Part shown: positions 753-15,946 of the stretch, piece by piece
Numbering within the stretch: position 1 is the first letter of the stretch
Layout of the letters: every line of letters begins with the position of its first letter
Source of the DNA: Cupriavidus necator
GTDB taxonomy: Bacteria > Pseudomonadota > Gammaproteobacteria > Burkholderiales > Burkholderiaceae
DNA: 32,000 bases
Direction: 5' to 3'
Assembly: GCF_016127575.1 (NCBI RefSeq)
Contig: NZ_CP066019.1
Span: forward strand, 2,700,001 to 2,732,000
Program-made: the position numbers and the translations under genes
Notes under the pieces: generated by a model
Databases searched by the model: none
Seen by the model: only the letters and a program-made list of their open reading frames with translations
What the model was told of the DNA's origin: nothing

Positions 753-2060
753 TCAGGAGATGTTTCCCGCGACTCGCATCTCCTTGTTCTCCTCGCTTAC
801 GAATTCGTCATCACCTTGCAGTACCCGGCGAGCTTGCGTAAGGTCGAGGTGACCTTCCCACGCTGCGATTGCTACCGCACCTACACAGTTTCCGATCAGG
901 TTGAGCGCCACCCGGAAGAAGCCCATCAGCTTGTCCACCGACAGGATAAGCGCCACACCCAAAACGGGAATTGCGGGGATGGCAGTCAACGTCGCTGCGA
1001 GCACGACAGTCGCCGACCCGGGGATGCCATGCGCGCCCTTGGAAGTCAGGAGAGAGACCAGGAGAATCAGGGCGAGGGTTCCACCTTCCAACGGCGTGTT
1101 GGTCGCCTGTGCAATGAAGATGACGGCGCACGTCAGCCAAATCGAGAAACCGTCGAGGTTGAACGAGTATCCCGTCGGAATAACAAGCCCCACCGTAGTC
1201 TCTTTCACACCAAGGTGGCGCAACTTTGCCATCACCAGCGGCATCACGGCATCCGATGAACTCGAGCCCAGGGCGATGAGCAGCTCGCTCTTCAGGTAGC
1301 CGATGAACTTGAACAGGCTAAGACCGGAAAGCCGCATCACCACACCCAGCACAAGGAACAGGAAGATTGCGCATGCGGCATAGTAGGCCAGGACCAGTTG
1401 GCCAAGCTGCTGGATGGTGGCAAAGCCAAACTTTCCGACGGTGAAGGCCATCGCCCCTGCAACGCCGAGCGGCGACAGACGAACAATGAAGCCAATGACA
1501 CGAAAAAGGACTTCGGAAAGGCTGTCCATCAGCTGACCCACCATCTTTCCTTTTTCACCGGCGATTTGAAGCGCGCAGCCGAACAGGACTGCAATCAAAA
1601 GCACCTGCAAAATGTCGCCCTTCGCGAAAGCCGAAAGGAAAGTGGACGGAATGATGTTCAGCAAGAAGCTCTTTACGTCCGAAACGTGTGAGGCATTCTC
1701 GACGAAGGTTTGTATCGACTTCGGATCCAGCGTGGATACATCGATATTCATGCCTACGCCAGGCTTCAAGACGTACGTGACGAAGACCCCAATCAGTAGC
1801 GCAATTGTCGTGACAATTTCAAAGTAGATAATTGTCTTGAGCGCTACACGCCCCGCCGTCTTCAGATCCCCTGCATGCAGGATCCCAGTCACGACGAAAC
1901 AGAAAACAATGGGCGCAAGCATCATCTTGATGAGCTTGATAAATGCTTCCGCCAGTGGCAGCAGTTGCACCCCAAAGGACGGGTACACGAAACCAATAAG
2001 CGCGCCAACTGCAAAGCCCAAGAGGACCTGGATATGTAACTTCTTCAGATACTTAAACAC
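753..2060 (-). CDS. dctA: C4-dicarboxylate / amino acid:cation symporter (DAACS family, DctA-like)
   Basis: Near full-length resemblance to E. coli DctA: ...FIKLIKMMLAPIVFCFVVTGI..., VIPTGYSFNLDG, SSKGAHGIPGS. The ORF is open up to a TTG at 2144. A GTG at 2060 is preceded by GGTGGAGA and gives an N-terminus (M)FKYLKKLHIQVLLG that aligns with the DctA start MKTSLFKSLYFQVL. That start also removes the 22-nt overlap with allA. Confidence 0.9.
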   Translation of the reverse strand: MFKYLKKLHIQVLLGFAVGALIGFVYPSFGVQLLPLAEAFIKLIKMMLAPIVFCFVVTGILHAGDLKTAGRVALKTIIYFEIVTTIALLIGVFVTYVLKPGVGMNIDVSTLDPKSIQTFVENASHVSDVKSFLLNIIPSTFLSAFAKGDILQVLLIAVLFGCALQIAGEKGKMVGQLMDSLSEVLFRVIGFIVRLSPLGVAGAMAFTVGKFGFATIQQLGQLVLAYYAACAIFLFLVLGVVMRLSGLSLFKFIGYLKSELLIALGSSSSDAVMPLVMAKLRHLGVKETTVGLVIPTGYSFNLDGFSIWLTCAVIFIAQATNTPLEGGTLALILLVSLLTSKGAHGIPGSATVVLAATLTAIPAIPVLGVALILSVDKLMGFFRVALNLIGNCVGAVAIAAWEGHLDLTQARRVLQGDDEFVSEENKEMRVAGNIS

Positions 2061-2122
2061 AATTTTTCTCCACCATCCGCCTTCGAAGCCATCGTTGATT
2101 CCGACGGGTTCTTCGCTGTTAC

Positions 2123-2671
2123 TTACTTCTCTGCGGTGCCGCAACCGAGAATTGCATGTTCCATTTCCTGCCTGAACGCGGGAATCACCGGCCGCACCTC
2201 CTCTGGAAGCACAAACTTGTCGCAGTTCGGACCGGCGCCGATCCGGTCAACCACAACGAAGTCACAAGCTTCGGTGGGCAACAGCACGTGATGCCAAACA
2301 CCTGGGGCGTAATTGATGCCTTGCCCTGGTTTGGCGATGAAGGCGCGGACCTCGGCCGCATCCACCGAAACTCCCCGGGGAGCGACCACTACGATAAAAC
2401 TGGTCGGCTTCATGGGAATGAAGGCTTGGCTCGACAATGGGTGACGTTCGAGGAACACCACCTCCAACGGCAATACGTACGGCTTTGCGCGCATGATGCT
2501 GATGCCAGCCTTACCACCAAGAGCCAGAGCATCAACCACGGCGAGGTCATGGTAGCGCTCAACCATGCCTTCGTTGATGTGATGGAAGGCGCCCGGGGAA
2601 GCCTCAATGACCTCGCCGAACGGCGAAAAGGCCGCCTTGGTCAAGGGCTCCAATTTCAGGGTGATACGCAT
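2123..2671 (-). CDS. allA: Ureidoglycolate lyase (AllA family)
   Basis: MRITLKLEPLTKAAFSPFGEVIEA...HHINEGMVERYHDLA...LERHPLSSQAFIPM...GINYAPGVWHH matches the AllA signature over the whole length. AAAGGAGAC Shine-Dalgarno lies before the ATG at 2671. Confidence 0.85.
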   Translation of the reverse strand: MRITLKLEPLTKAAFSPFGEVIEASPGAFHHINEGMVERYHDLAVVDALALGGKAGISIMRAKPYVLPLEVVFLERHPLSSQAFIPMKPTSFIVVVAPRGVSVDAAEVRAFIAKPGQGINYAPGVWHHVLLPTEACDFVVVDRIGAGPNCDKFVLPEEVRPVIPAFRQEMEHAILGCGTAEK

Positions 2672-2712
2672 AGGTCTCCTTTTATGCTTATGACTTTGTC
2701 AGGTTCCGGCCA

Positions 2713-2729
2713 TACTGGTCTGACCAGTA
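2713..2729. promoter_or_regulatory. Operator O1: perfect 17-nt palindrome TACTGGTCTGACCAGTA (putative GntR site)
   Basis: Read directly from the sequence. It lies 3 nt downstream of the -10 of the allA-dctA promoter. The same motif recurs at 5628-5652 and 15078-15094. Confidence 0.6.
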
Positions 2730-2732
2730 ATA

Positions 2733-2761
2733 ACTGTAGACTTGCCAGAAAGCTCGGTCAA
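2733..2761 (-). promoter_or_regulatory. Sigma70-type promoter for allA-dctA (TTGACC-17-TACAGT)
   Basis: On the minus strand, TTGACC is at 2761-2756, followed by a 17-nt spacer and TACAGT at 2738-2733, upstream of the allA ATG (2671). Confidence 0.5.
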
Positions 2762-2791
2762 GTGCTATATGTGATAATTATCAGACCAGTA
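2742..2791 (+). promoter_or_regulatory. Possible gntR promoter (TTGCCA-18-TATATG) plus half-degenerate operator TAATTATcagACCAGTA (2775-2791)
   Basis: TTGCCA is at 2742-2747 and TATATG at 2766-2771. The right arm plus spacer, CAGACCAGTA, is identical to O1; the left arm matches 4 of 7. This would give autoregulation. Confidence 0.3.
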
Positions 2792-2795
2792 TGAA

Positions 2796-3593
2796 GTGTC
2801 ACCTACACAGACTATGAAAGCGACTTCCGCTGCATTGGCACCCAAGGCGCCGCTGACTGCTCCCGCGCCACCAGGGCGTCGGCCACCTATCGCATTGCGC
2901 ACGCCTGTCACGCAGCACGCCTTGGAGCGCATGCAGACATCCATCTACAGCGGCGAATGGGCGGCGGACAGCCAGATCCCCTCACAGCGTGAGTTGGCTG
3001 AGCTGCTCGGCGTAAGCCGCTCTTCCTTGCGCGAGGCAATTTCCTCGCTGGAGGGAATGGGGCTGGTGCGGGTAGAGCCCGGCAGAGGCGTGTTTGTAGC
3101 ATCGCTCGAGCAGCAGGCTGCCGTCGGCAGAAACTCTGAAGTTCATCAGATCGACCATACACCGAGTGAACTTTATGAGGCACGCCTGTTGATGGAAGGT
3201 TGGGCCGCCGCCCTCGCATCCATCCATATCACCGATGACGACATCGCCGCCCTACGAAAACTGCTGGGGGAGATGGAAATCACGGTAAAGGACCACGATG
3301 TCACACGGCTGAACCAGCTGGATTTCGAGTTTCACTCGCTGATAGCTTCTTGCTGCGGCAATCGCCTGATTCGTGCACTACTTGCTCCGATTTTCTCGGA
3401 GGAAGAAATGAGCGCCCCGCGCCTTTCCGACACGGCATTCCTGAGCAGCCGCGTCAAAGAGCACAAGGAAATCGTGGAAGCCTTGGCAACGCGCAACCCT
3501 GGCCTCGCTCAAATGGCCATGCGTAACCATGTCCTGCGCAGCGCAAAGCGTGTCCAGGTAGAGCTGCCTGAGCACGTACATCAGCTGCCTTGA
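2796..3593 (+). CDS. GntR-family transcriptional regulator, FadR/FCD subfamily
   Basis: The N-terminal winged HTH reads IPSQRELAELLGVSRSSLREAISSLEGMGLVRVEPGRGVFV. The C-terminal FCD-type motif is LDFEFHSLIASCCGNRLI. The start may be GTG 2796 or ATG 2814; no clear SD precedes either. Confidence 0.85.
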   Translation: MSPTQTMKATSAALAPKAPLTAPAPPGRRPPIALRTPVTQHALERMQTSIYSGEWAADSQIPSQRELAELLGVSRSSLREAISSLEGMGLVRVEPGRGVFVASLEQQAAVGRNSEVHQIDHTPSELYEARLLMEGWAAALASIHITDDDIAALRKLLGEMEITVKDHDVTRLNQLDFEFHSLIASCCGNRLIRALLAPIFSEEEMSAPRLSDTAFLSSRVKEHKEIVEALATRNPGLAQMAMRNHVLRSAKRVQVELPEHVHQLP

Positions 3594-3609
3594 TGCACCA
3601 CAACTGCAT

Positions 3610-3640
3610 GCCGTTGGCGGGACCGTCGCCTGCCAACGGC
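3610..3640. terminator. Hairpin between the convergent gntR and allE-like genes
   Basis: GCCGTTGGC (3610-3618) pairs with GCCAACGGC (3632-3640) in a 9-bp GC-rich stem. There is no U-tract, as is common in high-GC Burkholderiales. Confidence 0.4.
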
Positions 3641-3651
3641 CGCAGCATGCG

Positions 3652-4425
3652 TCAGAAGGTGAAATCGCGATTCACGTTCTTGTAGAGCAGGTATGTCGCC
3701 TTGGACCAACCGGTGGCATAGAAGAACTGCGGACAGAACGGTGCCATGTAGATGAAGTCCTCCGCCCAGCACTCGTGCCAGTCATTTTGCAGTAGGTACA
3801 TCCCCTGCCCTTCCAGCATATAGAGCCCATGTTCCATGACATGCGTTTCCACCATGGGAAAGTAATTGCCAGGCTCGAAGCTCAGGATGTTGATGGCAAA
3901 GTCGAACGCCGGATTTTCATCGGGCAACAGATGCTGCCAGGTTCGGCCCTTGGTGTGCTTGTTCACCTTCTCGACATTTTGCTCGTGTGAAACCAGGGCT
4001 GCCGGGGCTTCCACGCCTTCGAGGCGTTCATAAGGTTTCTTGATCCATACGACGCGCGCTTCGTCGGCGCCCGGGTTGTACACACGTACGCCAGTTCCCG
4101 CGGGCGCGTATGCGAAGCCCCCTGCCTTGAGCTCGTGTGTCTTGCCCTCCAGTTCGAGCGACACATTGCCTGAAACAACGTAAAAGAAGGCCTGCATACC
4201 GTCGTTTCGCAGGGTCGTCATTCCGCCGCCACCCTGGATCTGCAGCAGCAGCTGGGCAAACTTCGCGCCCAGACCTGGCGTAGCTTGAACGCTGATGGTG
4301 GTCTTCTCAATCCCCGGAATACGGCTTTCCAGAATGCCCTCAGGAGGCATCACCGCATAGTGAGTCGTTACGGCCGCACGATGATGAGCGAACACACCGG
4401 GGGGCTGAATTTGCCGCTTCGTCAT
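3652..4425 (-). CDS. Bicupin, (S)-ureidoglycine aminohydrolase family (AllE/YlbA-like)
   Basis: Colinear with E. coli AllE/YlbA: IPG...ATPGLGAKF...FFYVVSGN...GGFAYAP...ILSFEPG...ETHVMEHGLYMLEGQGMY...DFIYM...YKNVNRD. I chose the ATG at 4425 (AAGGAG 8 nt upstream) over the ORF-track start at 4467. Confidence 0.75.
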   Translation of the reverse strand: MTKRQIQPPGVFAHHRAAVTTHYAVMPPEGILESRIPGIEKTTISVQATPGLGAKFAQLLLQIQGGGGMTTLRNDGMQAFFYVVSGNVSLELEGKTHELKAGGFAYAPAGTGVRVYNPGADEARVVWIKKPYERLEGVEAPAALVSHEQNVEKVNKHTKGRTWQHLLPDENPAFDFAINILSFEPGNYFPMVETHVMEHGLYMLEGQGMYLLQNDWHECWAEDFIYMAPFCPQFFYATGWSKATYLLYKNVNRDFTF

Positions 4426-4453
4426 TTTTTTGAACTCCTTGGGTAGGTGAGGG

Positions 4454-4474
4454 AAGCACCATGGCATGGTGCTT
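4454..4474 (-). other. Intercistronic hairpin between the porin and allE-like genes
   Basis: AAGCACCAT-GGC-ATGGTGCTT forms a 9-bp stem. It starts 5 nt after the porin stop and ends 29 nt before the allE-like ATG. No U-tract follows it. Confidence 0.4.
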
Positions 4475-4478
4475 GAGG

Positions 4479-5606
4479 TTAGAAGCGATGGCGCAATCCG
4501 ACAGAAGCGCCGAATGGGTCGGCGCCAGCGGCCGCTCCGGTGCGGCCGTTGGAAAAGTCATACTTGGCCGCCGCCTGATTGAGAATCTTCGATATCGTTG
4601 TGCGAATCATTGTTCGCTTACTCAGGTTGTAGTTGTAGCCGAGCGTCCACAACTGTGCGCCGGTCTGGCTGCTCGAACCACAGTTGACTCCGTTGCCTCC
4701 CGTGTCCCCTTGGCAACGAACATCATTCGCACGCCCGTACATGGCGTAGATTTCGTGGGCTCCCCAGTCATATTCGGTAACAAAAGCCCACGCATCCCGG
4801 CGCAAGCGGCCGTCACCATTGGAGAACTGGCCATCGCTGACCGAACGGTCATACAGACCGCCGATGAGCCACCGCTCTGTCACCTGGTACTTCACGCCGA
4901 CGCGATGTTTTTGGTCGTGGCCATTGGTCTGTGCCAGGCCGGCCTTGTTCTTGTCGTGTCTGTCCTCGTACGCATAAGCGACGTAGAAGGGACCTCTTGC
5001 ATAGGCAAGCCCGGCACCAATGACGTGGTCGTTGCGGCCGGTCCCGTCGGCGCGGACCTCTCCAAATCCATACTGCGCGCCTACCTCGATCCCATAGAAG
5101 GACGCCGAACGGTAGCGCACCGAGTTTTGCAACCGTGAATCGTGGTCGGTCGAAATGCCGTTCATGCTCGAAACCAACGACTGCAACGCCCCGATGCCCG
5201 TATTTGCGCCTGGCGTAAGATCAAGGGCGTTGCCCAGTGCGCGCACGCTGGTAGTGTTCACACCCAGCGTGAGAGCCCCCACCGGCCGATGGCGCAGTCC
5301 TACGAACGTATCTCGATTAAAGAAGGGCGTGCTGGACGCACCAGAATCAATCGAAAAGTTGCCTTCCAGCTGGAAGAAGGCGTCCAGACCGCCGCCTAAA
5401 TCTTCTGAACCCCGGATACCCCAGTACGACCCTTGCGAACTCAGTCGGGTAGTTCCCGGCTTGTCAGCCGCCGGGCCCGCAGTCGCGCCCTTGGCGCTTA
5501 CATAGTCAATCGCAGCGTCAGCCACGCCATAGAGCGTCACGCTACCCTGCGCTGCGGCGCCGGCCGTGAGTGCCGATAGGACTCCGCCCACCAGTATACG
5601 TTTCAC
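4479..5606 (-). CDS. Outer-membrane general porin (Gram-negative trimeric porin, Burkholderiales type)
   Basis: The signal peptide is KRILVGGVLSALTAGAAAQG, followed by SVTLYGVADAAIDY. The sequence alternates in beta-strand pattern and is rich in G, Y and N, with a C-terminal ...VGLRHRF. The likely start is GTG 5606, preceded by GGGGAGAGAG. The ORF-track extension to 5687 runs through the promoter and operator. Confidence 0.85.
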   Translation of the reverse strand: MKRILVGGVLSALTAGAAAQGSVTLYGVADAAIDYVSAKGATAGPAADKPGTTRLSSQGSYWGIRGSEDLGGGLDAFFQLEGNFSIDSGASSTPFFNRDTFVGLRHRPVGALTLGVNTTSVRALGNALDLTPGANTGIGALQSLVSSMNGISTDHDSRLQNSVRYRSASFYGIEVGAQYGFGEVRADGTGRNDHVIGAGLAYARGPFYVAYAYEDRHDKNKAGLAQTNGHDQKHRVGVKYQVTERWLIGGLYDRSVSDGQFSNGDGRLRRDAWAFVTEYDWGAHEIYAMYGRANDVRCQGDTGGNGVNCGSSSQTGAQLWTLGYNYNLSKRTMIRTTISKILNQAAAKYDFSNGRTGAAAGADPFGASVGLRHRF

Positions 5607-5627
5607 ATCTCTCTCCCCGTTGTTATT

Positions 5628-5652
5628 ATCATACTGGTCATACCAGTATGAT
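5628..5652. promoter_or_regulatory. Operator O2: ATCATACTGGT-CAT-ACCAGTATGAT (11-nt inverted arms)
   Basis: Read directly from the sequence. It sits between the divergent porin (start 5606, minus) and amidase (start 5704, plus) genes and directly abuts the -10 of the porin promoter. An extra half-site ACCAGTATA is at 5590-5598. Confidence 0.6.
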
Positions 5653-5681
5653 ACGATACTCACACGTGTTGGCAGAGTCAA
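5653..5681 (-). promoter_or_regulatory. Sigma70-type promoter for porin-allE (TTGACT-17-TATCGT)
   Basis: On the minus strand, TTGACT is at 5681-5676, followed by a 17-nt spacer and TATCGT at 5658-5653. Confidence 0.45.
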
Positions 5682-5703
5682 GCACACTTTCGAGGAGAGG
5701 CTG

Positions 5704-6687
5704 ATGAACGGCTTGGGTGGGTTAAATCAGACTGAAAACGGGGTCATCGTGGGGCTGCTGCAGCTTCGGAAAGCGGATATCGCAACGGCGGAGGACCTGC
5801 GCCTCTCTGCCGAGAGGCTCGCCTCGTTTGTGCACCAGGTAAAGGCGGGGCGCCCAAATGTCGACATCATTGTCTTTCCCGAGTATTCGCTCAATGGCGC
5901 CTCGAAGGCGTTGAGCGCTGATCTCCAGTGCACTGTGGATGGACCCCATGTTGGCGTGCTTCGTGACGCGTGTCGCCTGGCAAACGTATGGGCATGCTTC
6001 TCCTTCATGGAACTCAACCCGGGCGGCAACCCGTACAACTCAGCGATTCTGGTCAACAATGAAGGCCAAGTCTGCTTGCACTACCGCAAACTTCACCCGT
6101 GGGTTCCTGCAGAGCCGTGGGCGCCGGGGAACCTTGGCATACCGGTGTGTGAAGGACCCAAGGGTTCCAAGATTGCCGTCGTCATCTGCCATGACGGGAT
6201 GTTTCCCGAGGTCGCTCGGGAGTGCGCCTACAAGGGCGCCGAGTTGATGATTCGCATCGCCGGCTACTCTTCGTCACTGCGTCATCAATGGCACCTGACC
6301 GCACAGGCCGATGCCTTTTGCAACCTGATGTACACAGCAAGCGTTTGCGGATGCTCAGCCTCTGGCCCATTTGGTGGAATGGGCGAGGCCATCGTCGTGG
6401 GTTTCGATGGAGTACCAATCCGCCACGGCAGCAACAAGGAAAATGAATTGATTACTGCCGAAATCCGACCGGACCTGGTACGCGAGGCACGCCGAACCTG
6501 GGGTGCTGAAAACAATATCTACCAGCTGGGCCACAGAGGCTTCGTGGCCGTCAGCGGCGGCGCGAACGACTGCCCGTATACGTACATGCAAGACCTGGTC
6601 GCTGGGCGGTACAGTCTGCCGTGGGAAGATGAAGTCCTCGTAAAGGATGGCACGATGGCCGGACACCCTCCCCCACGGCGAACGTGA
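5704..6687 (+). CDS. Nitrilase-superfamily amidase, formamidase/aliphatic amidase branch (AmiF/AmiE-like)
   Basis: Glu-Lys-Cys triad contexts are VFPEYSL, YRKLHPW and VVICHDGMFPE. Long blocks match H. pylori AmiF as I remember it: PWVPAEPWAPGNLGIPVCEGPKGSKIAV, ENNIYQLGHRGFVA, DLVAGRYSLPWEDEVLVKDG. ATG 5704 is preceded by GAGGAGAGG. The ORF-track start at 5566 lies inside the porin gene and promoter. Confidence 0.8.
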   Translation: MNGLGGLNQTENGVIVGLLQLRKADIATAEDLRLSAERLASFVHQVKAGRPNVDIIVFPEYSLNGASKALSADLQCTVDGPHVGVLRDACRLANVWACFSFMELNPGGNPYNSAILVNNEGQVCLHYRKLHPWVPAEPWAPGNLGIPVCEGPKGSKIAVVICHDGMFPEVARECAYKGAELMIRIAGYSSSLRHQWHLTAQADAFCNLMYTASVCGCSASGPFGGMGEAIVVGFDGVPIRHGSNKENELITAEIRPDLVREARRTWGAENNIYQLGHRGFVAVSGGANDCPYTYMQDLVAGRYSLPWEDEVLVKDGTMAGHPPPRRT

Positions 6688-6700
6688 CGACCGGTGCCCA

Positions 6701-6719
6701 CTTCGCCAGGTTGGCGAAG
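6701..6719. terminator. Hairpin between the convergent amidase and allantoicase genes
   Basis: CTTCGCCA-GGT-TGGCGAAG forms an 8-bp stem, followed by CGGGTTTCC on the plus strand. Confidence 0.35.
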
Positions 6720-6740
6720 CGGGTTTCCAAATGGCTACGG

Positions 6741-7796
6741 TCAGCGCGCAATCAGTCCAGGCGCTCCCAGGAGCCGGAGTCTTGTCACTCCGCCGTCGGG
6801 GTAGATATTCAGTCTGACATGGGTGACGAGCGTATCCCGAAGCGCCGCGCTCAGCTCGACAGCATTCTGGCATCCGCCCTTCAGGTTACTGCGCCCTACC
6901 AGTTCCGGCCAGTACATCGCCTGGTTCAGAACCACCTCGTCGGTGGCACTTTCGAGGCATGCGCCTTGCAGCGAAAAGGCGGCAGGAAAGTTGCCCGTGT
7001 AGTAGGTCGTATCGACCAGGACGCGCTCCAGCGTCCCCGGTGCCGCCAAGGCAATCACGGCCCAGTCATGCCCCGGCTTCCTCAGACGCCTGGTTTCCCA
7101 GCCCTTGCCCCATTCCACTGAGGGACCTGGCGCAATCATGGCCCGTACCGCGCCGAAGTGCGTATCACTGCAACCTACAATGCGGGCACCGTTTTCCAGT
7201 GCCGCCAGATCGCACTGGCCAGCCGGACCGAGCGCCTCCGGCAGTTGGACCAGCCCAAAGACACGAAAGCGAGCCATCCCGCCGTCCGGAAAAATGTTCA
7301 GCCGGACATGTGTGAAGACCCCTCTTGCGTCGACTGAAACCAGTCGTTGGCTGTCCCCGGCAAGCTCGGTCGCGGGCACGAGCGCGGTCCATTCGACATC
7401 GGCGATATCGTCATCCGCCGAAATGGCGCAGGCTTGCACTGACGCGGCCAAAGGATAGTTGCCGGTGTAGAAGCTGGTGTCGAATCCTATCGCGGTGATC
7501 TGGCCTGGCCGGCCAAGCTTGATAACACACCATTCGTTGCCAGCCTTGCGTCGACGAGACGTCTCCCATCCATCTACCCAGCGCATCCCTTCGTCATCGT
7601 GATAGTAGTAGTTCGCCGCTTTCGGGTTGAGCATGCGCGATGCCGGCGCATACCACTCGTCGGACGCCGCTACGACTGTCGCGCCCAGACGCTCATCCGC
7701 CAGATCCACGTACGCCCGTTCACTGCGAAGGAACGCTTCCGAAGGTTCCGAACGCTGCCGAATCATGGTCCTGTCATTACTTCCGCCTGCCATCAT
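6741..7796 (-). CDS. alc: Allantoicase (allantoate amidinohydrolase), two-repeat architecture
   Basis: There are two internal repeats, each carrying the allantoicase signature: DGWETSRRRK...CVIKLG...FDTSFYTGNYP...VRLNIFPDGGMARFRVFG, then KGWETRRLRK...AVIALA...VDTTYYTGNFP...VRLNIYPDGGVTRLRLLG. The start is ATG 7796/7793, behind AGGGAGG. Confidence 0.85.
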   Translation of the reverse strand: MMAGGSNDRTMIRQRSEPSEAFLRSERAYVDLADERLGATVVAASDEWYAPASRMLNPKAANYYYHDDEGMRWVDGWETSRRRKAGNEWCVIKLGRPGQITAIGFDTSFYTGNYPLAASVQACAISADDDIADVEWTALVPATELAGDSQRLVSVDARGVFTHVRLNIFPDGGMARFRVFGLVQLPEALGPAGQCDLAALENGARIVGCSDTHFGAVRAMIAPGPSVEWGKGWETRRLRKPGHDWAVIALAAPGTLERVLVDTTYYTGNFPAAFSLQGACLESATDEVVLNQAMYWPELVGRSNLKGGCQNAVELSAALRDTLVTHVRLNIYPDGGVTRLRLLGAPGLIAR

Positions 7797-7881
7797 CTGC
7801 CTCCCTAAATTGTCCGCAATGCAGACTGATTGAATCCGCCGCACCCCAGCCAGAGCTGACATGCGGCGATACCTGACGGCG

Positions 7882-8307
7882 TTAGCTCCAAGGCCTGGAA
7901 CAGCGCCGATATGAAATGGAAAGGCCTCCCCGCTCATGAATGAGTGCGCCGAGATCGGCGAGCCGCTCTTGCCCTGTCGTCACCGTAAGCACGTGGTGGC
8001 CAGACAGTTCGCCGCTGGGGCAGGCAAAGCGCGTAGGCCCGTAAGGAATCAAGAGTTCTCCGCCTACATCGTCATTCCCTCCATAGAGCAGAATCTGGCC
8101 CACGGCTGGCCGCGATATGCCTCCATTGCCGATATGCTTTGCGGTTCCTCCCAGGCGAGCGAAAACCGCATGGCCGCTCCAGCGCCCTTGCAGGAACTCC
8201 CATTGAGCCGGCAACCTCTCCATCAACCAGTCACATGCTGCCGGCGAGAGGTCTTGCTCAAGTCTTGCCAGAAAGGAATAGGGACCCGCCTTCATCTCGA
8301 TATCCAT
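7882..8307 (-). CDS. Small conserved hypothetical protein, possibly DUF3830 / cyclophilin-like fold
   Basis: 141 aa with GGAGAA 5 nt before ATG 8307. The motif ...LPAQWEFLQGRWSGHAVFARLG... and the overall length recall the DUF3830 family. The family call is from memory and weak; the coding call rests on operon context and the SD. Confidence 0.5.
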   Translation of the reverse strand: MDIEMKAGPYSFLARLEQDLSPAACDWLMERLPAQWEFLQGRWSGHAVFARLGGTAKHIGNGGISRPAVGQILLYGGNDDVGGELLIPYGPTRFACPSGELSGHHVLTVTTGQERLADLGALIHERGGLSISYRRCSRPWS

Positions 8308-8370
8308 AATTTCTCCGATTCGCATATAGGCAATGCAGGGGCCTGGCCAAGCCAAGGCCATTGAACAACA

Positions 8371-9573
8371 TCAACCGCGGAAACGCATGGCGGTTCCGAT
8401 GGCACACGCGAACACGATGGATAGGCACGCAGCGATGGCTATCATGGCGTTCGCCAGGCCCATCAGCCCTGCCACATATCCAACGAGCAAGCCACCCACG
8501 GCAGCGCCGGCGCGAAACGTCATGACGTGGAGCGCGACTACCCTACCCTTATGCGTCTCAACGGCTTGCATTTGAGCGAATGCACTTGAGCAGATGTTCA
8601 CAGCGGCCTGACCGAGCGCAAAAATCCCGATGGCGAAATAACCGCCTAGTTCCGAGGACGATAGCGAAAGCATTGCGGTGCCTGAGGCGAGAAAGACAAG
8701 CGAAATCACCTGGACCTTCAGCAGCGTCCGAATGTGACTGACAAGCGAAAGCAAGAGGCCAGCCGCAATAGCAAGGACTCCAAACAATGCATTGATATTG
8801 CCGAGCACCCTTGCATCCTGTCGCAGGATGCTGTCGACGATTGCCGGCAGCATGTCGATAACGGGGCGACCCAGCATCGCATACGCAAGGTAGACCAGGA
8901 AGACCAGGCGCATGGATCGGTCGTCAAGGACTGCGGTGAATGCACCCTTCAGCGTTACGAGGAAGGATTCCCGCCTGGGCGGCCGTACTGGCTTGGTCTC
9001 ACCGTCATTTCCGGAGAGAACTCGCACAAACATGGCATCTGCCAGTGCGGTGACGCCACTCAACGCGAACGCAAAAAACGAGAGATTGTTCGTTATCAAG
9101 TACGCCGCCCCAAGCGGGCCGACAGAACGTGCGATATTCATCGAGACAGAGTTCACCGACACAGCACTGGCGATTTCGGTCTTCTCGACCAGCTTGGTGA
9201 GCAATACCTGGCGGGCCGGCTGCGAAAAGCTTCCGCATATCCCGACGAGTAGCGCACACGCAAGCAACGCGAAAATCGTCAGGTTTCCGGTGACGGCAAG
9301 CGCCGCCAGGACTAAGGACGTCAGACCACAGGTCGCATCAGCGATGCGGACGACTTGCCTGACCTTGCCTCGGTCGACCAGTATCCCCGCGAGCGGGGAT
9401 ACGACGAAGGATGGTGCAAACTGGACGAAGATCAGAATGCCGAGCAGCAGTTCAGAATGAGTTTGCTCCCATGCGTACCATCCCACGACCACCTGCTGAA
9501 CCCATGTCCCAATCTGGGCCGAGGTATGAATCAGGTAATAGGCAGCAACCCGCGGCTGGCGAAGAACTCTCAT
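8371..9573 (-). CDS. MFS transporter (EntS / MFS_3 'transmembrane secretion effector'-like)
   Basis: About 12 predicted hydrophobic helices. The N-terminus reads AYYLIHTSAQIGTWVQQVVVGWYAW...SPLAGILVDRG, typical of that MFS subfamily. Its ATG (9573-9571) overlaps the TGA of the upstream ABC ATPase (an ATGA overlap). Confidence 0.8.
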   Translation of the reverse strand: MRVLRQPRVAAYYLIHTSAQIGTWVQQVVVGWYAWEQTHSELLLGILIFVQFAPSFVVSPLAGILVDRGKVRQVVRIADATCGLTSLVLAALAVTGNLTIFALLACALLVGICGSFSQPARQVLLTKLVEKTEIASAVSVNSVSMNIARSVGPLGAAYLITNNLSFFAFALSGVTALADAMFVRVLSGNDGETKPVRPPRRESFLVTLKGAFTAVLDDRSMRLVFLVYLAYAMLGRPVIDMLPAIVDSILRQDARVLGNINALFGVLAIAAGLLLSLVSHIRTLLKVQVISLVFLASGTAMLSLSSSELGGYFAIGIFALGQAAVNICSSAFAQMQAVETHKGRVVALHVMTFRAGAAVGGLLVGYVAGLMGLANAMIAIAACLSIVFACAIGTAMRFRG

Positions 9574-11624
9574 GCTCGCAAAGTCATGGACTCCACACCC
9601 ATGTCATTGCGAGAATAAGTATCCTGCATCAAAGATGAATCGGCCTCGACCAGCGAGTTCGCGTAATGGCACCGGACAGCACGCCCGTCCCCATACTCGC
9701 TCAACGCCGGCCGTTCATTGCACACGTCCGACCGATACGGGCACCGCGGGGAGAAGCAGCAGCCTTCCGGCCTTTGCATTGGGTTCGCAACGCCCGCCAG
9801 GATTCGATTCGCTTCATCCTGTTCCCGCCGCACCAAGGTCGGCGTACTTGCGAGCAGCGCTTTGGTATAGGGATGGGCCGGATTTCCCAGAACCTGCTCG
9901 GCAGGTCCATATTCGACGACTTCACCCAGATACATCACGGCAATCTCATCTGCCATATGACCCACCACAGCGAGGTCATGGCTGATAAACACCAGCGTCA
10001 GCTGAAACTCCTTCCGAAGTTGCAGCAGAAGGTTCAGGATCTGAGCTTGAACCGAGACATCCAGCGCCGACGTCGGCTCGTCGCAGACAATCAATGCCGG
10101 GTTGGTTGCAAGGGCACGTGCAATTGCAACGCGTTGGCGCTGCCCACCGGAGAGCTGCCCGGGTGAAGCGTGGTGAAGCCGGGTTGGCAGACCGACCTTC
10201 CCGAGCAAGCTGGTCACGTGCGCGTCACGTTGTGCCGCGGGCATGGCCGCAGACAGGTCAAGCGGCCGCCGTACAATCTCGCTCACACTGCGACTCGGAT
10301 TGAGCGATGAGTAGGGATCCTGAAATACGGTCTGCACAAGGGCTGCCCGCTGCGCGGGCTCATACGCTCCAATGGGACGTTCATCGAGCAGCACTTCTCC
10401 TGAAACTGGCTGCTCCAACCCGAGAAGCATCCGAGCAAGCGTGGACTTCCCGCATCCCGACTCACCCACGATGGCCAGTGTCCGGCCCTTCTGAAGACGC
10501 AAGGACACGTCAACCACAGCCTTGAGCGAGAGCCGTGGCTTGAACAGGCCGCCGCGGACCTGGTACGTCATGGAGATGTCCTTTGCTTCCAGCAGTACAT
10601 CTCCCGCCGGCCTCCGCAACATAGCCATAGGTGTCTCGACTTCCTCCGGCTGCGGGGCGCTGGCAAGGTGACATGCACCAGAGTGCTTCTTGTCGTAGGC
10701 ACGAAGCTTCGGCGCTTCGAGACCGCATCTGGCGAATGCGTACTTGCACCGACGCTCGAAGACGCAGCTGGCTGGCTGGGAATAGAAAGACTGGACGGTG
10801 CCCGGTAGTGTAGGAAGCAGAGTGCCGGCCTCATGCTTCCCAAGGTCCGGGATCGACCGTAGCAGGCCCTGCGTATAGGGATGCCGCGATGCGGCGAAGA
10901 GTGTGCTCGTCGGTGCGGCTTCTACGATTTCTCCGGCGTACATGACGGCAACGTTGTCGGCGACTGATGCTACGGCCCCCAAATTGTGGGAGATCAGCAG
11001 CAATCCCATGCCGAGCTCTCGACGCAGGTCATCCAACAAGTCCAGGATCTGCTTTTGGACCGTGACATCCAGGGCCGTAGTGGGCTCGTCGGCGATGAGC
11101 AGCTGCGGGCGATTCATGAGCGCCATGGCAATCATGATGCGCTGGCGTTGCCCACCGGAGAACTCATGCGGGAACGATGTCATACGCTTGGCCGGCGAGG
11201 CAATACCCACCCGCTCCAGCAGCTCAATCGCGCGTCTGCGGGCATGGTCGCCGGCCACCGCCTGGTGGCGCCGCATTGTCTCCGTCAACTGCCTGCCGAT
11301 GCTGTAGACGGGGTTCAAGGCCGTCATTGGCTCCTGGAAGATGTATCCAACCTGAGTCCCTCGCACGGTGCTCGCCAGGTCGCGCTCAGACATGCTGGTC
11401 AGGTCCAGGCCATTTACGCGCAGCGTGTCAGCCGAGCACTGTGCGCGCCGTGGCAGCAATCGTGGAATCGAAAGCGCAGTTAGCGACTTGCCGGAACCTG
11501 ACTCACCGACTACTCCGAGGCACTCTCCCTTGTCGATTTTGAGGCTGACGTTACGGACAGCATGCAATGTGCGCCTGTTCTCCAGCGGCAGCTTGATGCT
11601 GAGATTCTCTACTTCAAGAAGCAT
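9570..11624 (-). CDS. ABC transporter ATP-binding protein, fused double ATPase (DppD-DppF / GsiA-like)
   Basis: It carries two complete ATP-binding cassettes. Walker A motifs are GESGSGKS and GESGCGKS. Signature motifs are FSGGQRQR and LSGGQRQR. Walker B motifs are LLIADEPT and LIVCDEPT. Both halves end in the Cys-rich Opp/Dpp C-terminal segment. The true start is ATG 11624, 5 nt after the permease stop. The 848-aa ORF-track version runs into the permease gene. Confidence 0.9.
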   Translation of the reverse strand: MLLEVENLSIKLPLENRRTLHAVRNVSLKIDKGECLGVVGESGSGKSLTALSIPRLLPRRAQCSADTLRVNGLDLTSMSERDLASTVRGTQVGYIFQEPMTALNPVYSIGRQLTETMRRHQAVAGDHARRRAIELLERVGIASPAKRMTSFPHEFSGGQRQRIMIAMALMNRPQLLIADEPTTALDVTVQKQILDLLDDLRRELGMGLLLISHNLGAVASVADNVAVMYAGEIVEAAPTSTLFAASRHPYTQGLLRSIPDLGKHEAGTLLPTLPGTVQSFYSQPASCVFERRCKYAFARCGLEAPKLRAYDKKHSGACHLASAPQPEEVETPMAMLRRPAGDVLLEAKDISMTYQVRGGLFKPRLSLKAVVDVSLRLQKGRTLAIVGESGCGKSTLARMLLGLEQPVSGEVLLDERPIGAYEPAQRAALVQTVFQDPYSSLNPSRSVSEIVRRPLDLSAAMPAAQRDAHVTSLLGKVGLPTRLHHASPGQLSGGQRQRVAIARALATNPALIVCDEPTSALDVSVQAQILNLLLQLRKEFQLTLVFISHDLAVVGHMADEIAVMYLGEVVEYGPAEQVLGNPAHPYTKALLASTPTLVRREQDEANRILAGVANPMQRPEGCCFSPRCPYRSDVCNERPALSEYGDGRAVRCHYANSLVEADSSLMQDTYSRNDMGVESMTLRA

Positions 11625-11629
11625 GGCGT

Positions 11630-12532
11630 TCAATCCCGAGTCTGTGGCTGGATGACATCGCGCAACCCATCGCCGAGCAGGTTCACGCCTATCACGAGAA
11701 GAAAGAGAGATGCGCCGGGCAGCAAGACAATCCATGGATTGAGGAACATCACCGCCTTGCCTTCCGAGATCATCAACCCCCAGGACGGGATGGGCGAAGG
11801 CACTCCGACGCCAAGGAACGACAGCGACGCTTCTGCCAGGATAGAAACCGCCACTTCCGCAGTGAATACGACCAATAGCGACCCAGCCAGGTTGGGCAGG
11901 ATGTCCCAGACGATGATTTGGCGAGCACTGGCGCCAGCCAATTTCGATGCCTTGACATAGTCCAGTTCTCGAATCCGCTGCGTTGCGCTGCGCGTCACGA
12001 CCAGATAGAGCGTCCAGTGCATCAGCCCGATAACGCAGACGACGGTCGTGAGCGACGGCTGAATGAAATAGATCAGAGTCATCGCCAGGAGCAAGCTCGG
12101 AAGCGCAAGCTTGCACGTAAGGCCGAACATGACAGCGTGGTCAACCAGGCGCCCGAAGTATCCGGCGATCGAACCCAACGTTATTCCGATGACGGCGCCG
12201 ATAGACGCGGCGCAGAAGCCAATGGTGAGCGATACTCGCGCGCCCTCGAGCAGGCGCGCAAGAACGTCTCTACCCAGCTGGTCCGTGCCGAGCGGATGCT
12301 GGAGTGCGCCCCTGGCATCCCAAGCCGGCGGGCGCAGTCGCATCATCAGATCCTGCGCGTATGGGTCTGTCGTCCAAATCAGCGGCCCGAAAAGCGCAAC
12401 CATGATGTAGGCAAGTACCACCCCACCACCAATGCGCACGCTTCGGTTGCGAAGGATTCGTTTTGGCAGACTGTCGCGCCTTTCAGCATTCGATGAGGCG
12501 CTTACTTCCGTAGTCAGAGCAATATCGGTCAT
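11630..12532 (-). CDS. ABC transporter permease (DppC/OppC-like)
   Basis: The N-terminal TM helix is followed by ...DPYAQDLMMRLRPPAW... and an EAA-type loop, ASKLAGASARQIIVWDILPN. ATG 12532 lies 1 nt after the stop of the upstream permease. Confidence 0.9.
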   Translation of the reverse strand: MTDIALTTEVSASSNAERRDSLPKRILRNRSVRIGGGVVLAYIMVALFGPLIWTTDPYAQDLMMRLRPPAWDARGALQHPLGTDQLGRDVLARLLEGARVSLTIGFCAASIGAVIGITLGSIAGYFGRLVDHAVMFGLTCKLALPSLLLAMTLIYFIQPSLTTVVCVIGLMHWTLYLVVTRSATQRIRELDYVKASKLAGASARQIIVWDILPNLAGSLLVVFTAEVAVSILAEASLSFLGVGVPSPIPSWGLMISEGKAVMFLNPWIVLLPGASLFLLVIGVNLLGDGLRDVIQPQTRD

Positions 12533-12533
12533 C

Positions 12534-13451
12534 TCATGCAAGCCTAATTCGTGGGTCAAGCCAGGCGTTGAGGACGTCTGACACAAAAGTCATCAGCACA
12601 AACATCACCGCGAAGACAAGCACCAGCATCTGTAAGGTAGGGATGTCACCGGTAAGCACTGAATTCAGTGCCAACCGGCCCAATCCATTCATGGCAAAGA
12701 CGACCTCGGTAACGACCGATCCTCCCAGCTTGTTCCCCAGTTCGATGGCGAGCACGCTCACCACCGGAAGAATCGCGTTACGCAAGGCGTGGCGACGCAG
12801 AAGGCTCCAGCCGAAGAACCCTTTTGCCCGGGCGGTCCGGATAAAGTCCGCCGAAAGTACTTCCATCAGCCCCGACCTGGTCAGCCGCATGACATTCGGG
12901 ACCGCACCTTTGCCGAGAATCACCGCCGGCATAATGTAGCTCTGCCACGAGTCGTCTCCGGACACCGGAAGCAAGCCGAGGTGAACGGCGAAAAACAGGA
13001 TGAACAACAGTCCTACCCAGAAATTCGGGGCGGCCTGTATGGCGGCTGCGACTGAGAGCGCGGTGCGGTCTATCCAGCTGCCTGGCCGCAGTGCGGCAGC
13101 GACACCAAGTGGCAGGCCGATCAGGATGGTGACCAGCATCCCGCTCAGCGCCAGTCGGATGGTGACCGGTGCATGCTCGAGGATAATTTCCATGACTGGC
13201 TGCTTCATGACATAGCTGACGCCCAGGTCACCTTTTAACAGCCCGCCCACCCATGTCACGTACCGCTCTGAAGCGGGCCTGTCCAACCCGAGGTCTGCGC
13301 GGACTTGCGCGATTACGGCCGGGTCATCGGTATCGCCAACGATAGCCGCGGCCGGGTCGACGGCAAAGTTGAGCAGCGCAAAGGTGACAATCGACGCCGT
13401 CAAGGCGACGGCGATTGCCAACAGGATCTTCTGCGTAACGAATCTAAGCAC
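12534..13451 (-). CDS. ABC transporter permease (DppB/OppB-like)
   Basis: MLRFVTQKILLAIAV... and DFIRTARAKGF...LRRHALRNAILPV are typical DppB family motifs. The start is GTG at 13451. Confidence 0.9.
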   Translation of the reverse strand: MLRFVTQKILLAIAVALTASIVTFALLNFAVDPAAAIVGDTDDPAVIAQVRADLGLDRPASERYVTWVGGLLKGDLGVSYVMKQPVMEIILEHAPVTIRLALSGMLVTILIGLPLGVAAALRPGSWIDRTALSVAAAIQAAPNFWVGLLFILFFAVHLGLLPVSGDDSWQSYIMPAVILGKGAVPNVMRLTRSGLMEVLSADFIRTARAKGFFGWSLLRRHALRNAILPVVSVLAIELGNKLGGSVVTEVVFAMNGLGRLALNSVLTGDIPTLQMLVLVFAVMFVLMTFVSDVLNAWLDPRIRLA

Positions 13452-13472
13452 GATGTCGTTTCCCTAGTTCGT

Positions 13473-15032
13473 TCACTTCTTTGCCTTCCACGTGGCTAGA
13501 TACAGCCGTGGCATGCCGTCAGCAGCCTGCGGAAAATTCAGATCCGGCGCCAGGACGAAGTTCTGGGTGAATTCAAACAGAGGTACCCAGTAGGCTTGGT
13601 CAAGAATGCGACTCACCGCCTCCCGCCCGAGCTCCTTACGTGCTGGGATGTCGGTTGTGGACAGGAACTGTTCGAGACTCAAATACAGTCGCTGGTCGTG
13701 ATGGAAGTCACTGGGCGAGCCCTTGCCGAACAGATTGGGCAAGAGCGCGCCAGCATCCGCGACGCCCAGGGAGCCGTTGTTCTCGAAATATGCTGAGATC
13801 TGGTTTTCATCGCGCGCCTTGAGCACAGCGGGCGATTTGGCGACGCGCAGATTGGCGTTGATTCCGGCCTTTCGCCACATCGCGACGACAGCTTCCAGCG
13901 TTTCCTTTTCACGCGATGCCCACAGATCAAACTGAAGTCCGTTCGGATAACCCGCCTCAGTAAGAAGTTGCTTCGCCTTTGCGATGTTGTAGTTGTACTT
14001 GGTGACGTCCTGGGCGCAGCCGAACTGTATCGGCAAGCAGGGGGTATAGGCAGGAGCCGAACGTCCGCGAATGAGCTGCCTTGTCAGAGCCTCCCGGTCC
14101 ACCGCGTAGTTGAGGGCCTGACGTACCTTCAGCTTGGTAAAAGGATTGTCCTTGCCGGTGCGCCCGGCCGCGTCCAGCACGATGAAGCCGATGCGCATGG
14201 ACGGCGACGCCACAAAGACTGCTTGCTTGGTACTTCCAACCTCATCGGCAATGTCCGTTGGAATGTTGTATGTCCAATGAACGCCGCCGGAAAGAACCTC
14301 CGCTACCTGAGTTGCGTAGTCTGGAATCACCTTGATGCGAATGCGCGGGATTTCTGGCGTGCCTTTCGGGGATTCCTTGCGATAGCCGGCAAACTTTTCC
14401 AGCACGACTTCTCGTCCGGGCAGGAACGAGGTGACTTTATAGGGGCCAGTCCCCACCATTTTTCGCGACTGCGCCTCGACATCCAGGCCGCTGGGCGTCC
14501 CCGCTTTGTCGTACGTTCCGCTCTTGACAACCCGACCTGTCGTTGCCAGAAAATGCAGCGCCAGAGGATTCGCGCCCTTCATTCTGAACACCACGGTACC
14601 AGGCGCTTCCCCCTTCTCTACTTTCGCCAGCCATCGCTTGAACTGATCCCCCTTCTTGGCAGTGCTTTTGGGATTGATGATGGACTGGAATGTATAGATG
14701 ACGTCGTCGGCTGTCACTTTGCTGCCGTCATGGAACTGGATGTCCTCACGCAGGGTGACTTCAAGAACGGTCGGTTCGAGATATCGGTAGCTCTTTGCCA
14801 GCAAGGGCGTCGGCTGCTGCGTCGCCGGGTCGATGTAGAAGAGAGAATCGTCAATCAGGAGACTGAGGATTTCGTTCTCGCGAGAGGTGGAGTTGAAATT
14901 GTCCAATACCAATATTTCTCTCGCGACCGCTGCGACAAGCGTGCCGTCTGCGGGCTTGGCGTCCGCGGCAATCGGTGAGAAACATCCCCATAGGATGGAG
15001 AGGCCTGCCAAGCTGCTGCGAACTCGTTTCAT
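13473..15032 (-). CDS. ABC transporter substrate-binding protein, family 5 (peptide/nickel/opine type)
   Basis: Signal peptide MKRVRSSLAGLSILWGCFSPIAADA. About 520 aa with the family-5 pattern ...YRYLEPTVLEVTLREDIQFHDGSKVTADDV... It is the first gene of the ABC operon. Confidence 0.9.
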   Translation of the reverse strand: MKRVRSSLAGLSILWGCFSPIAADAKPADGTLVAAVAREILVLDNFNSTSRENEILSLLIDDSLFYIDPATQQPTPLLAKSYRYLEPTVLEVTLREDIQFHDGSKVTADDVIYTFQSIINPKSTAKKGDQFKRWLAKVEKGEAPGTVVFRMKGANPLALHFLATTGRVVKSGTYDKAGTPSGLDVEAQSRKMVGTGPYKVTSFLPGREVVLEKFAGYRKESPKGTPEIPRIRIKVIPDYATQVAEVLSGGVHWTYNIPTDIADEVGSTKQAVFVASPSMRIGFIVLDAAGRTGKDNPFTKLKVRQALNYAVDREALTRQLIRGRSAPAYTPCLPIQFGCAQDVTKYNYNIAKAKQLLTEAGYPNGLQFDLWASREKETLEAVVAMWRKAGINANLRVAKSPAVLKARDENQISAYFENNGSLGVADAGALLPNLFGKGSPSDFHHDQRLYLSLEQFLSTTDIPARKELGREAVSRILDQAYWVPLFEFTQNFVLAPDLNFPQAADGMPRLYLATWKAKK

Positions 15033-15077
15033 GCTCTGTAATCCCCCTGAACATACGATTTTTTGCCGTTCTGGTCA

Positions 15078-15094
15078 TACTGGTATGACCAGTG
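15078..15094. promoter_or_regulatory. Operator O3: TACTGGTatgACCAGTg, embedded in the palindrome CTGGTCATAC-TG-GTATGACCAG (15071-15092)
   Basis: Read directly from the sequence. It lies 7 nt downstream of the -10 of the ABC-operon promoter and 46 nt upstream of the SBP start codon. Confidence 0.6.
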
Positions 15095-15101
15095 TCGAGA
15101 C

Positions 15102-15131
15102 ACTATAGTCGGGGGGTTGAGCTACTGTCAA
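15102..15131 (-). promoter_or_regulatory. Near-consensus sigma70 promoter for the ABC/MFS/DUF3830/alc operon (TTGACA-18-TATAGT)
   Basis: On the minus strand, TTGACA is at 15131-15126, followed by an 18-nt spacer and TATAGT at 15107-15102. Confidence 0.55.
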
Positions 15132-15225
15132 AAGAGGGTTTTCCCGCAGTGGCAGCGCCCGATTGCCAACTCGCTGGCGTGTGCCGCCTATACTCCGCAT
15201 GCCACCTTTCATCCGGAGCCAAACC

Positions 15226-15915
15226 ATGGATTACACCCCGGGCATCAGCCACCTCGCCGCCCTGCTCGCCGATCCCGGCCGCGCGGCCATGCTGTGGGCG
15301 CTGATGGACGGCAGCGCCCGGCCCGCCGGCGAGCTGGCGCTGATCGCCGGGCTGTCGGCCTCCTCCACCAGCGGCCACCTGGCCCGCTTGACCGAAGGCG
15401 GGCTGCTGGTGGCCGAGACGCGCGGGCGCAACCGCTACTACCGCCTGGCCGCGCCGGAGATCGGCGTGGCGATCGAGGCGCTGGCGTCGGCGTCGCTGGC
15501 CAGCCAGCCGCCGCGGCTGCGCGACGTGCCGGCATCGCGCACCGCGCCACCGGCGCTGCGCCAGGCGCGCACCTGCTATGACCACCTGGCGGGCGAGCTG
15601 GCCGTGGGCCTGTTCGAGCGGATGACGCATTCGGGCTGGCTGATGCTGGACGGACAGCGCGTAGACCTGAGCGGCGACGGCGCGCAGGCGCTGGCGGGGC
15701 TGGGTGTCGACGTGGAGGCGGCGCGGCGCAAGCGGCGCCAGTTTGCCTGCACCTGCCCGGACTGGAGCGAGCGCAAGCCGCACCTGGGCGGCGCGCTTGG
15801 CGCGGCGCTGTTGGGCAGCCTGCTGTCGCGCGGCTGGGTCGAGCCTACGCGCACCTCGCGCGCGTTGCGCGTGACACCGGCGGGCCAACGCGAGATCATT
15901 CGCATCGCGGCCTAG
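15226..15915 (+). CDS. ArsR/SmtB-like winged-helix regulator with a C-terminal Cys/His-containing extension
   Basis: The N-terminal wHTH reads LLADPGRAAMLWALMDGSARPAGELALIAGLSASSTSGHLARLTEGGLLVAETRGRNRYYRL. The C-terminal half carries RTCYDHLAGELAVGL and FACTCPDWSERKPHLGG, motifs I recall from a widespread ~230-aa ArsR-like family. ATG 15226 is preceded by GGAG. Confidence 0.75.
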   Translation: MDYTPGISHLAALLADPGRAAMLWALMDGSARPAGELALIAGLSASSTSGHLARLTEGGLLVAETRGRNRYYRLAAPEIGVAIEALASASLASQPPRLRDVPASRTAPPALRQARTCYDHLAGELAVGLFERMTHSGWLMLDGQRVDLSGDGAQALAGLGVDVEAARRKRRQFACTCPDWSERKPHLGGALGAALLGSLLSRGWVEPTRTSRALRVTPAGQREIIRIAA

Positions 15916-15946
15916 GAGACCGCAGCAAGCAACAGGAGAAAACAAG

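Follow-up and report, generated by a model that had tools for sequence, protein, structure and literature searches.

A 32,000-nucleotide stretch of the Cupriavidus necator genome (contig NZ_CP066019.1, positions 2,700,001 to 2,732,000; hereafter the window) carries amiF, a gene for an AmiF-type formamidase (5704-6687, plus strand), within a cluster of ureide catabolism genes, and raises the question of what such an enzyme does there. AmiF formamidases are well described as enzymes, whereas little is clear about what they do naturally in free-living bacteria. The first-pass annotation of the window offered two answers: that AmiF replaces a missing allantoate amidohydrolase (AllC) and so feeds ureidoglycine to the AllE-like protein of the cluster, or that it removes a small amide by-product. 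The second of these is plausible and is favoured here: the amiF product is most likely an ordinary formamide hydrolase, which serves the ureide regulon in nitrogen salvage as a co-regulated step that is not essential. This reading rests on the family of the protein, its catalytic and pocket residues, the proximity of an operator, the co-divergence of amiF with the cluster, purifying selection, and the dispensability of the gene. The earlier assignments of the protein to the AmiF branch and of the gene to the regulon stood, whereas the replacement of AllC and the premise of a missing step did not.

The amiF open reading frame encodes 327 amino acids, and its product matches Pfam CN_hydrolase (116 bits) and the NCBIfam equivalog model of formamidase (NF009803, 526.8 bits over model positions 1-329 of 333, cut-off 406 bits), with which a genome-level search agrees. 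The protein fails the models of the amidase AmiE (NF009802, 217.3 bits, cut-off 427 bits) and of N-carbamoylputrescine amidase (AguB, TIGR03381, 44.9 bits, cut-off 410 bits), and carbamoylase-type models give 45 bits or less. The closest solved structures are the formamidase of Bacillus cereus (5g3o, E = 3e-102) and AmiF of Helicobacter pylori (2dyu, E = 6e-96), with weaker matches to AmiE (E about 1e-53) and to D-carbamoylases (E = 1e-7 to 1e-4); the AmiE-type proteins of the genus are 31-36% identical to AmiF. In an IQ-TREE phylogeny of 37 AmiFs and four AmiE outgroup sequences (100/100), which does not include the characterised AmiF sequences, the protein falls on the AmiF side, apart from the outgroup, in a separate 14-member clade (100/100 support). 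By sequence, the amiF product is therefore a genuine AmiF-type formamidase as far as family goes, from an unusually diverged sub-branch, and the models, structures and tree agree with the first-pass choice of the AmiF branch over the carbamoylase branch.

The three contexts of the Glu/Lys/Cys triad recorded at first pass (FPEYSL, YRKLHPW and ICHDG) are all located in the frame 5704-6687, with FPEYS at residue 58, YRKLHPW at 127 and ICHDG at 161. HMMER alignments place the tetrad E60/K129/E137/C162 upon E60/K133/E141/C166 of H. pylori AmiF, and the tetrad is invariant in all 37 AmiFs compared. Sequence alignment with AmiF likewise finds the pocket residues retained, since D164 and the wall residues W133 and Y188 correspond to D168, W137 and Y192 of the H. 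pylori enzyme, in which Asp168 is essential and Trp137 and Tyr192 form a pocket wall that leaves room for formamide only (PMC10781810). Formamide supports growth via both of two AmiFs that share just 48% identity (PMC10781810).

The start of amiF is placed at 5704 because the N-terminus aligns from residue 1-2 and a ribosome-binding site (GAGGAGAGG, 5692-5700, plus strand) lies 3 nt ahead of the ATG; nucleotide similarity of the amiF genes of a metagenomic contig (L082) and of Caballeronia to the window starts at 5693. An FCD-GntR-type operator (5631-5649) lies in the 97 bp that separate the porin gene, which starts with GTG at 5606 on the minus strand, from the amiF ATG; it is a perfect palindrome with 8-nt arms and a 3-nt spacer (ATACTGGT-N3-ACCAGTAT), centred 64 nt upstream of that ATG. 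Related sites occur at 2712, 2774 and 15077, where chance expectation is none, so that operator sites precede gntR/allA and the ATP-binding cassette (ABC) transporter operon, and one lies between porin and amiF. Four Cupriavidus versions of the cluster (the window, G003, G012 and G091) were compared with one another and with L082. The operator at 5631-5649 is conserved in G003 and G012, with degenerate copies in G091 and L082, and in the rearranged cluster of L082 an operator-like site stands 65 nt ahead of the amiF ATG. The site and its near-equal spacing in L082 bear out the proposal that amiF belongs to an operator-defined regulon shared with the porin-allE unit.

A divergent promoter of the porin-allE unit is predicted on the minus strand (5653-5681, TTGACT-17-TATCGT, a consensus match) with the operator directly after it, and the same layout of promoter and operator (TTGACG-17-TATTGT) precedes allE in L082. 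A candidate promoter of amiF (5602-5629, plus strand, TTCACA-16-TATTAT with a TG extension) is predicted to end 2 nt before the operator. A sigma-54 promoter before amiF was considered from a sigma-54-like GG/GC pair at about 5669-5684, picked out by eye, and was rejected, its spacing being 9 nt and not 10. Between the convergent stops of amiF and alc, the allantoicase gene, lies a hairpin (6696-6724; -27 kcal/mol, z -3.1) made up of a core of 8 bp and an outer stem of 4 bp. Between G003 (CCCAC/GTGGG) and G012 (CCCGC/GCGGG) the outer stem differs on both sides. The hairpin may be a bidirectional terminator; its T-run is weak.

Comparison of the cluster versions bears on how long amiF has been part of the cluster. 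In G003 amiF is intact, with a product 94% identical in amino-acid sequence. In G012, a frameshifting deletion of about 800 nt has removed E60, K129 and C162; on one side of it the promoter region of amiF survives with the ribosome-binding site, the start codon and the first 13 codons, and on the other side about 140 nt of the 3' end. G091, the cluster of which is about 77% nucleotide-identical, has about 130 bp from the porin promoter to the alc stop and no trace of amiF. L082 encodes an AmiF 84% identical to that of the window and shares the dctA-allA, allE, amiF, alc, MFS and Dpp ABC genes, which are 75-81% identical in nucleotide sequence. Porin and DUF3830 genes are absent from L082, and its GntR is a different one. 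As in the window, amiF of L082 converges on alc and points away from the allE unit. The natural amiF pseudogene of G012 (L016, 9870-10050) has its first 39 nt out of frame with the remainder, and the rest of that cluster is intact.

The GC content of amiF (0.59; 0.68 at third codon positions) is like that of the cluster (0.584) and unlike that of the flank (0.662). Its synonymous divergence (dS) of 0.46 from G003 and 1.7 from L082 lies within the range of the neighbour genes, and its ratio of nonsynonymous to synonymous divergence (dN/dS) of 0.065 (G003) and 0.058 (L082) is equal to or lower than that of alc. Because composition and divergence are in step with the cluster, amiF has evidently been resident for a long time. 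A recent insertion of amiF had been suggested by its absence from G091 and by insertion sequence (IS) elements in Caballeronia, and was abandoned in view of L082, which is rearranged and yet matches in amiF divergence and operator spacing. Thus, amiF has belonged to clusters of this type for a long time and under selection, although it has been lost at least once and is dispensable.

In Caballeronia sp. INDeC2, amiF (86% identical) is found just after an alc-allA operon, and IS elements lie between amiF and a module of gntR-allA and dctA-allE (dctA 80%, allE 85%). That gap (L024, 9341-12167) holds two or three transposase genes of the DUF772 and IS110 families. The cluster operator was not found before the Caballeronia amiF, the lone match elsewhere in the locus being at chance level.

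It is rather unlikely that amiF has no link to ureides at all, merely borrowing a promoter and operator that are active on poor nitrogen in order to scavenge environmental formamide. Such an origin would agree with the dispensability of amiF in two of the four Cupriavidus versions, with the IS elements adjoining it in Caballeronia, with its stand-alone state in most other genomes and, on general chemical grounds, with the assumption that formamide needs no transporter. It is harder to square with an operator spacing matched in two cluster versions that are about 77% nucleotide-identical and otherwise rearranged, with a dN/dS as low as that of the core enzymes, or with a substrate-specific GntR repressor, an odd route to control by nitrogen limitation. 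This explanation overlaps that of an ordinary, co-regulated formamide hydrolase, the sole difference being where the formamide comes from.

The premise that an allantoate-cleaving step is missing from the cluster was wrong as stated, because the cluster encodes a complete allantoicase route. The allantoicase gene alc (6741-7796, minus strand, with the reading frame open to 7937; TIGR02961, 355 bits against 278), present in a single copy in the genome, is convergent with amiF and lies 53 bp past its stop, and allA, the ureidoglycolate lyase gene (2123-2671, minus strand), is the sole PF04115 match in the genome. The AllE-like bicupin (3652-4425, minus strand) passes the (S)-ureidoglycine aminohydrolase model (TIGR03214, 317 bits, cut-off 200 bits).

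It is most improbable that AmiF stands in for AllC, supplying AllE with ureidoglycine by hydrolysis of a ureido group in allantoate. Hydrolysis of N-carbamoyl groups is known in other branches of the nitrilase superfamily, the genome is without a match to AllC (TIGR03176) above the cut-off, and an Alcaligenaceae cluster of AllE, AllA, Dpp and DUF3830 has a gene of the M20 allantoate amidohydrolase type in place of alc and amiF, the AllE relatives there directly following an M20 enzyme that passes NF006771. Against this, allantoicase is present and conserved, the pocket wall residues W133 and Y188 are retained, the carbamoylase model gives 45 bits against a cut-off of 410, and the fold of AmiF is CN_hydrolase and not the M20 metallohydrolase fold. 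The genome also encodes, outside the cluster, at least two M20 paralogues that pass NF006769, of which one passes NF006771 as well; both are "allantoate amidohydrolase" subfamily models. Furthermore, alc, allA and allE are under constraint in both G012 and G091, and no gene of the cluster is more constrained than allE, even where amiF has been deleted (G012, dN/dS 0.010) or is absent (G091, dN/dS 0.027). The constraint on allE without amiF, the M20 paralogues and the conserved residues of the narrow pocket leave this replacement with little support.

The favoured reading, in which AmiF acts as an ordinary formamide hydrolase, can be put as a scheme. An FCD-type GntR repressor would control the cluster including amiF, and the core of the cluster would convert allantoate or a close analogue to glyoxylate and urea via allantoicase and AllA. 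AmiF would hydrolyse formamide with water to formate and ammonia through a thioester intermediate at Cys162, recovering ammonia from formamide that is either external or a side product of the undefined substrate of the cluster. Three elements of the scheme are inferred: that formamide is the substrate, that the GntR protein acts as a repressor, and where the formamide comes from. The loss of amiF in some lineages would follow from the step being useful and not essential.

Several observations weigh against this scheme. To our knowledge, no textbook allantoicase or AllC step yields formamide, so that the scheme does not account for where the substrate would come from. Conservation of the predicted amiF promoter is poor (weak in G003). 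The stem of the clade to which the window AmiF belongs has about 1.0 changes per site, compared to 0.15 or less on other inner AmiF branches, and 27 positions are fixed differently from other AmiFs, including H64N, L66A and M68K in the loop after the catalytic E60 and T185I, T189S, P191S and I192L in that around Y188; the literature searched gave no characterised member of this clade. Urea, the main product of the cluster, inhibits the B. cereus formamidase, which is odd in a co-expressed enzyme (PMC10781810); as described there, urea reaches the catalytic Cys of B. cereus AmiF and inhibits by carbamoylating it. The inhibition, with urea as the main product, is either a problem for co-expression or a hint at what the clade has adapted to.

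The burst of change on the clade stem is real. The clade is sister (98/94) to stand-alone AmiFs from soil, and median identity is 79% inside the clade, 77% among other AmiFs, even across phyla, and 57% between the two groups. Within the clade, members with a ureide link (Cupriavidus, L082 and Caballeronia) do not separate from those that stand alone (Enterovirga, Paracoccus and five metagenomic contexts), the two kinds being mixed, with unresolved branching; seven of ten clade contexts are without a ureide link, the others being Cupriavidus, L082 and, loosely, Caballeronia.

The long stem and the clade-fixed residues keep a shifted specificity on the table. The clade could possibly, though this is unlikely, act mainly on another very small ureide-linked amide, such as urea or carbamate, oxamate, formylurea or an N-formyl compound. 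Beyond the stem length and the 27 substitutions, some of which flank the catalytic Glu and pocket Tyr, this would be in keeping with the recurrence of AmiF-type genes in clusters that yield urea-type compounds (biuret hydrolase operons as well as the allantoicase/AllA cluster), with the access of urea to the catalytic Cys of B. cereus AmiF, which it carbamoylates, and with the co-divergence of amiF with the cluster under strong constraint. However, W133, Y188, D164 and the tetrad are unchanged, and two of the clade-fixed residues, I185 and S189, are also those of H. pylori and B. cereus AmiF, which are specific for formamide. Outside the Burkholderiaceae, most genes of the clade stand alone, and the genus has a conventional urease (Ralstonia eutropha, PMC3098086).

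An altered job coupled to the pathway is less likely still, and may be considered improbable: either allantoicase or AllA would release formamide, and not urea, from an allantoate analogue, or, at the extreme, AmiF would turn over S-carbamoyl-cysteine, the intermediate at which the B. cereus enzyme comes to a halt. If the latter were true, the urea produced by the cluster would be hydrolysed without nickel.

Two further observations concern members of the clade. A 70%-identical member occurs in L028 (7204-11575) and L029 (1673-6068) in the order SDF transporter, TerC, AmiF, cyclophilin-like protein; DUF3830 presumably belongs to a cyclophilin-like clan, and the window cluster also has an SDF transporter, but the resemblance may be coincidence. 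The amiF gene of Paracoccus binzhouensis (L019, 8001-8980, 80% identical) matches from residue 34 only, in an interrupted frame, and may be a pseudogene or a sequencing error.

In the order as a whole, AmiF-type genes are found in 19 of 401 genomes, and biuret is the recurrent association. All 16 Burkholderiales loci fetched have a BMP-type ABC transporter operon around AmiF, and in 14 of them the gene adjoins that of the biuret amidohydrolase BiuH. In one of these loci (L057), BiuH has 427 bits on NF050097 (against 370) and AmiF has 582 bits on NF009803. The operon, which is widely conserved, consists of genes for a BMP-family binding protein, two permeases, AmiF, BiuH and a double ATPase (L057, 7219-13893; also L058-L072, L022, L023, L031 and L135-L166), and it crosses phyla, the BMP/BiuH-type arrangement being present also in Gracilibacillus, Ilumatobacter and a spore-former. 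Among 47 metagenome loci of at least 6 kb that encode AmiF, 19 have the BMP transporter (nine with BiuH) and 28 have no recognisable partner; alc, allE and allA were found in none of the 47. The suggestion of a new physiological role for this enzyme branch is weakened, since AmiF-type genes are routinely embedded in biuret operons, a ureide-type setting of nitrogen scavenging. One idea is that BiuH-type hydrolysis of formylurea would give N-formylcarbamate, which on decarboxylation would supply formamide to AmiF.

The gene is conserved, selected and operator-linked in a ureide cluster and has relatives inside biuret operons; the two contexts together suggest that formamide, or a near-isosteric amide, is an unrecognised by-product of the catabolism of urea-derived compounds. 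In the literature searched on formamidase in Cupriavidus/Ralstonia eutropha and with allantoicase or biuret, no description was found of this gene or of this association. C. necator is genetically tractable, so that the question is directly testable, and nature has supplied knockouts in two congeners. The finding is an ordinary one if the enzyme acts on formamide alone and its link to the cluster is only regulatory.

The remainder of the ureide cluster comprises transport and regulatory genes. A DctA-family (SDF) transporter gene (753-2144, minus strand) is downstream of allA, which overlaps its start by 22 nt, and an FCD-family GntR regulator gene (2796-3593, plus strand) has the operator-like sites 2712-2730 and 2774-2792 just upstream. 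A Porin_4 outer-membrane porin gene (4479-5606, minus strand) is the first gene of the porin-allE unit. Beyond alc, on the minus strand, are genes for a DUF3830 protein (7882-8307) and for an MFS transporter, a fused DppD/F ATPase, two permeases and an SBP_bac_5 binding protein (8371-15032), with an operator at 15077-15095. An open reading frame at 2156-2794 (plus strand) was rejected as a gene, having no family match; the true gene is allA on the opposite strand. Just beyond the edge of the cluster (15163-16453, plus strand) are genes for a winged-helix (ArsR/MarR-like) regulator and then a DUF6630 protein.

The block 753-15158 (about 14.4 kb) has a GC content of 58.4%, compared to 66.2% on the right flank. 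Within the genus, allantoicase turned up in 4 of 78 genomes, and the block is colinear in only a few congeners; the binding protein of the cluster was found in 3 of 401 genomes of the family. The cluster is horizontally acquired and rare in Cupriavidus, and amiF is a long-standing accessory gene of it.

Compared to the known AmiF formamidases (EC 3.5.1.49) of H. pylori (2dyu/2e2k) and B. cereus (5g3o), the window AmiF appears by alignment to have the same fold, length, tetrad and Trp/Tyr wall, and shares the Asp two residues after the Cys and the I-x-G-Y-S at the pocket Tyr. It differs in belonging to a separate, strongly supported clade on a long stem, with the signature EYSLNGASK, IAGYSxSLRH and TAQ(A/S)D. 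By its position, amiF of the window would be controlled from a GntR/FCD operator in a ureide cluster, whereas amiF of H. pylori is controlled by acid, Fur and NikR (PMC10781810).

The AmiFs of the BMP/BiuH operons belong to the same family and have a similar setting of urea-derived nitrogen scavenging, in which the role of AmiF is unexplained as well, but they are just 52-65% identical to the window clade. Their partners are BiuH and the BMP ABC transporter, whereas those of the window AmiF are alc, allA, allE and the Dpp ABC transporter; BiuH was not found above the cut-off in the genome of the window.

The formamidase FmdA of Methylophilus methylotrophus belongs to the unrelated acetamidase/formamidase (FmdA_AmdA) family. 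A review (PMC10781810), which is inconsistent on this point, describes the fmdCABDEF genes, which also include a regulator, as placing a formamidase beside a dedicated outer-membrane porin for amides and urea and a binding-protein-dependent ABC importer in an inducible nitrogen-scavenging unit, a resemblance to the window. The porin and transporter families differ between the two, and the transporter and porin of the window go with the allantoicase pathway.

A close parallel to the cluster, without amiF, is that of the Alcaligenaceae (Candidimonas nitroreducens, L088, 2955-12878; L089, 3063-12313), which encodes DppBCDF with its binding protein, M20, AllE, AllA, RpiR and DUF3830. It shares with the window AllE (74-76% identical), AllA, a Dpp-type ABC importer and DUF3830, and differs in having an M20 amidohydrolase and neither allantoicase nor AmiF, showing the in-cluster form of a step that feeds AllE. 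In L089, unlike L088, the AllA gene is at the far end of the locus. In the window, allE is kept alongside allantoicase. It appears that one AllE/AllA/DUF3830/Dpp module can be entered in either of two ways, through the M20 enzyme or through allantoicase.

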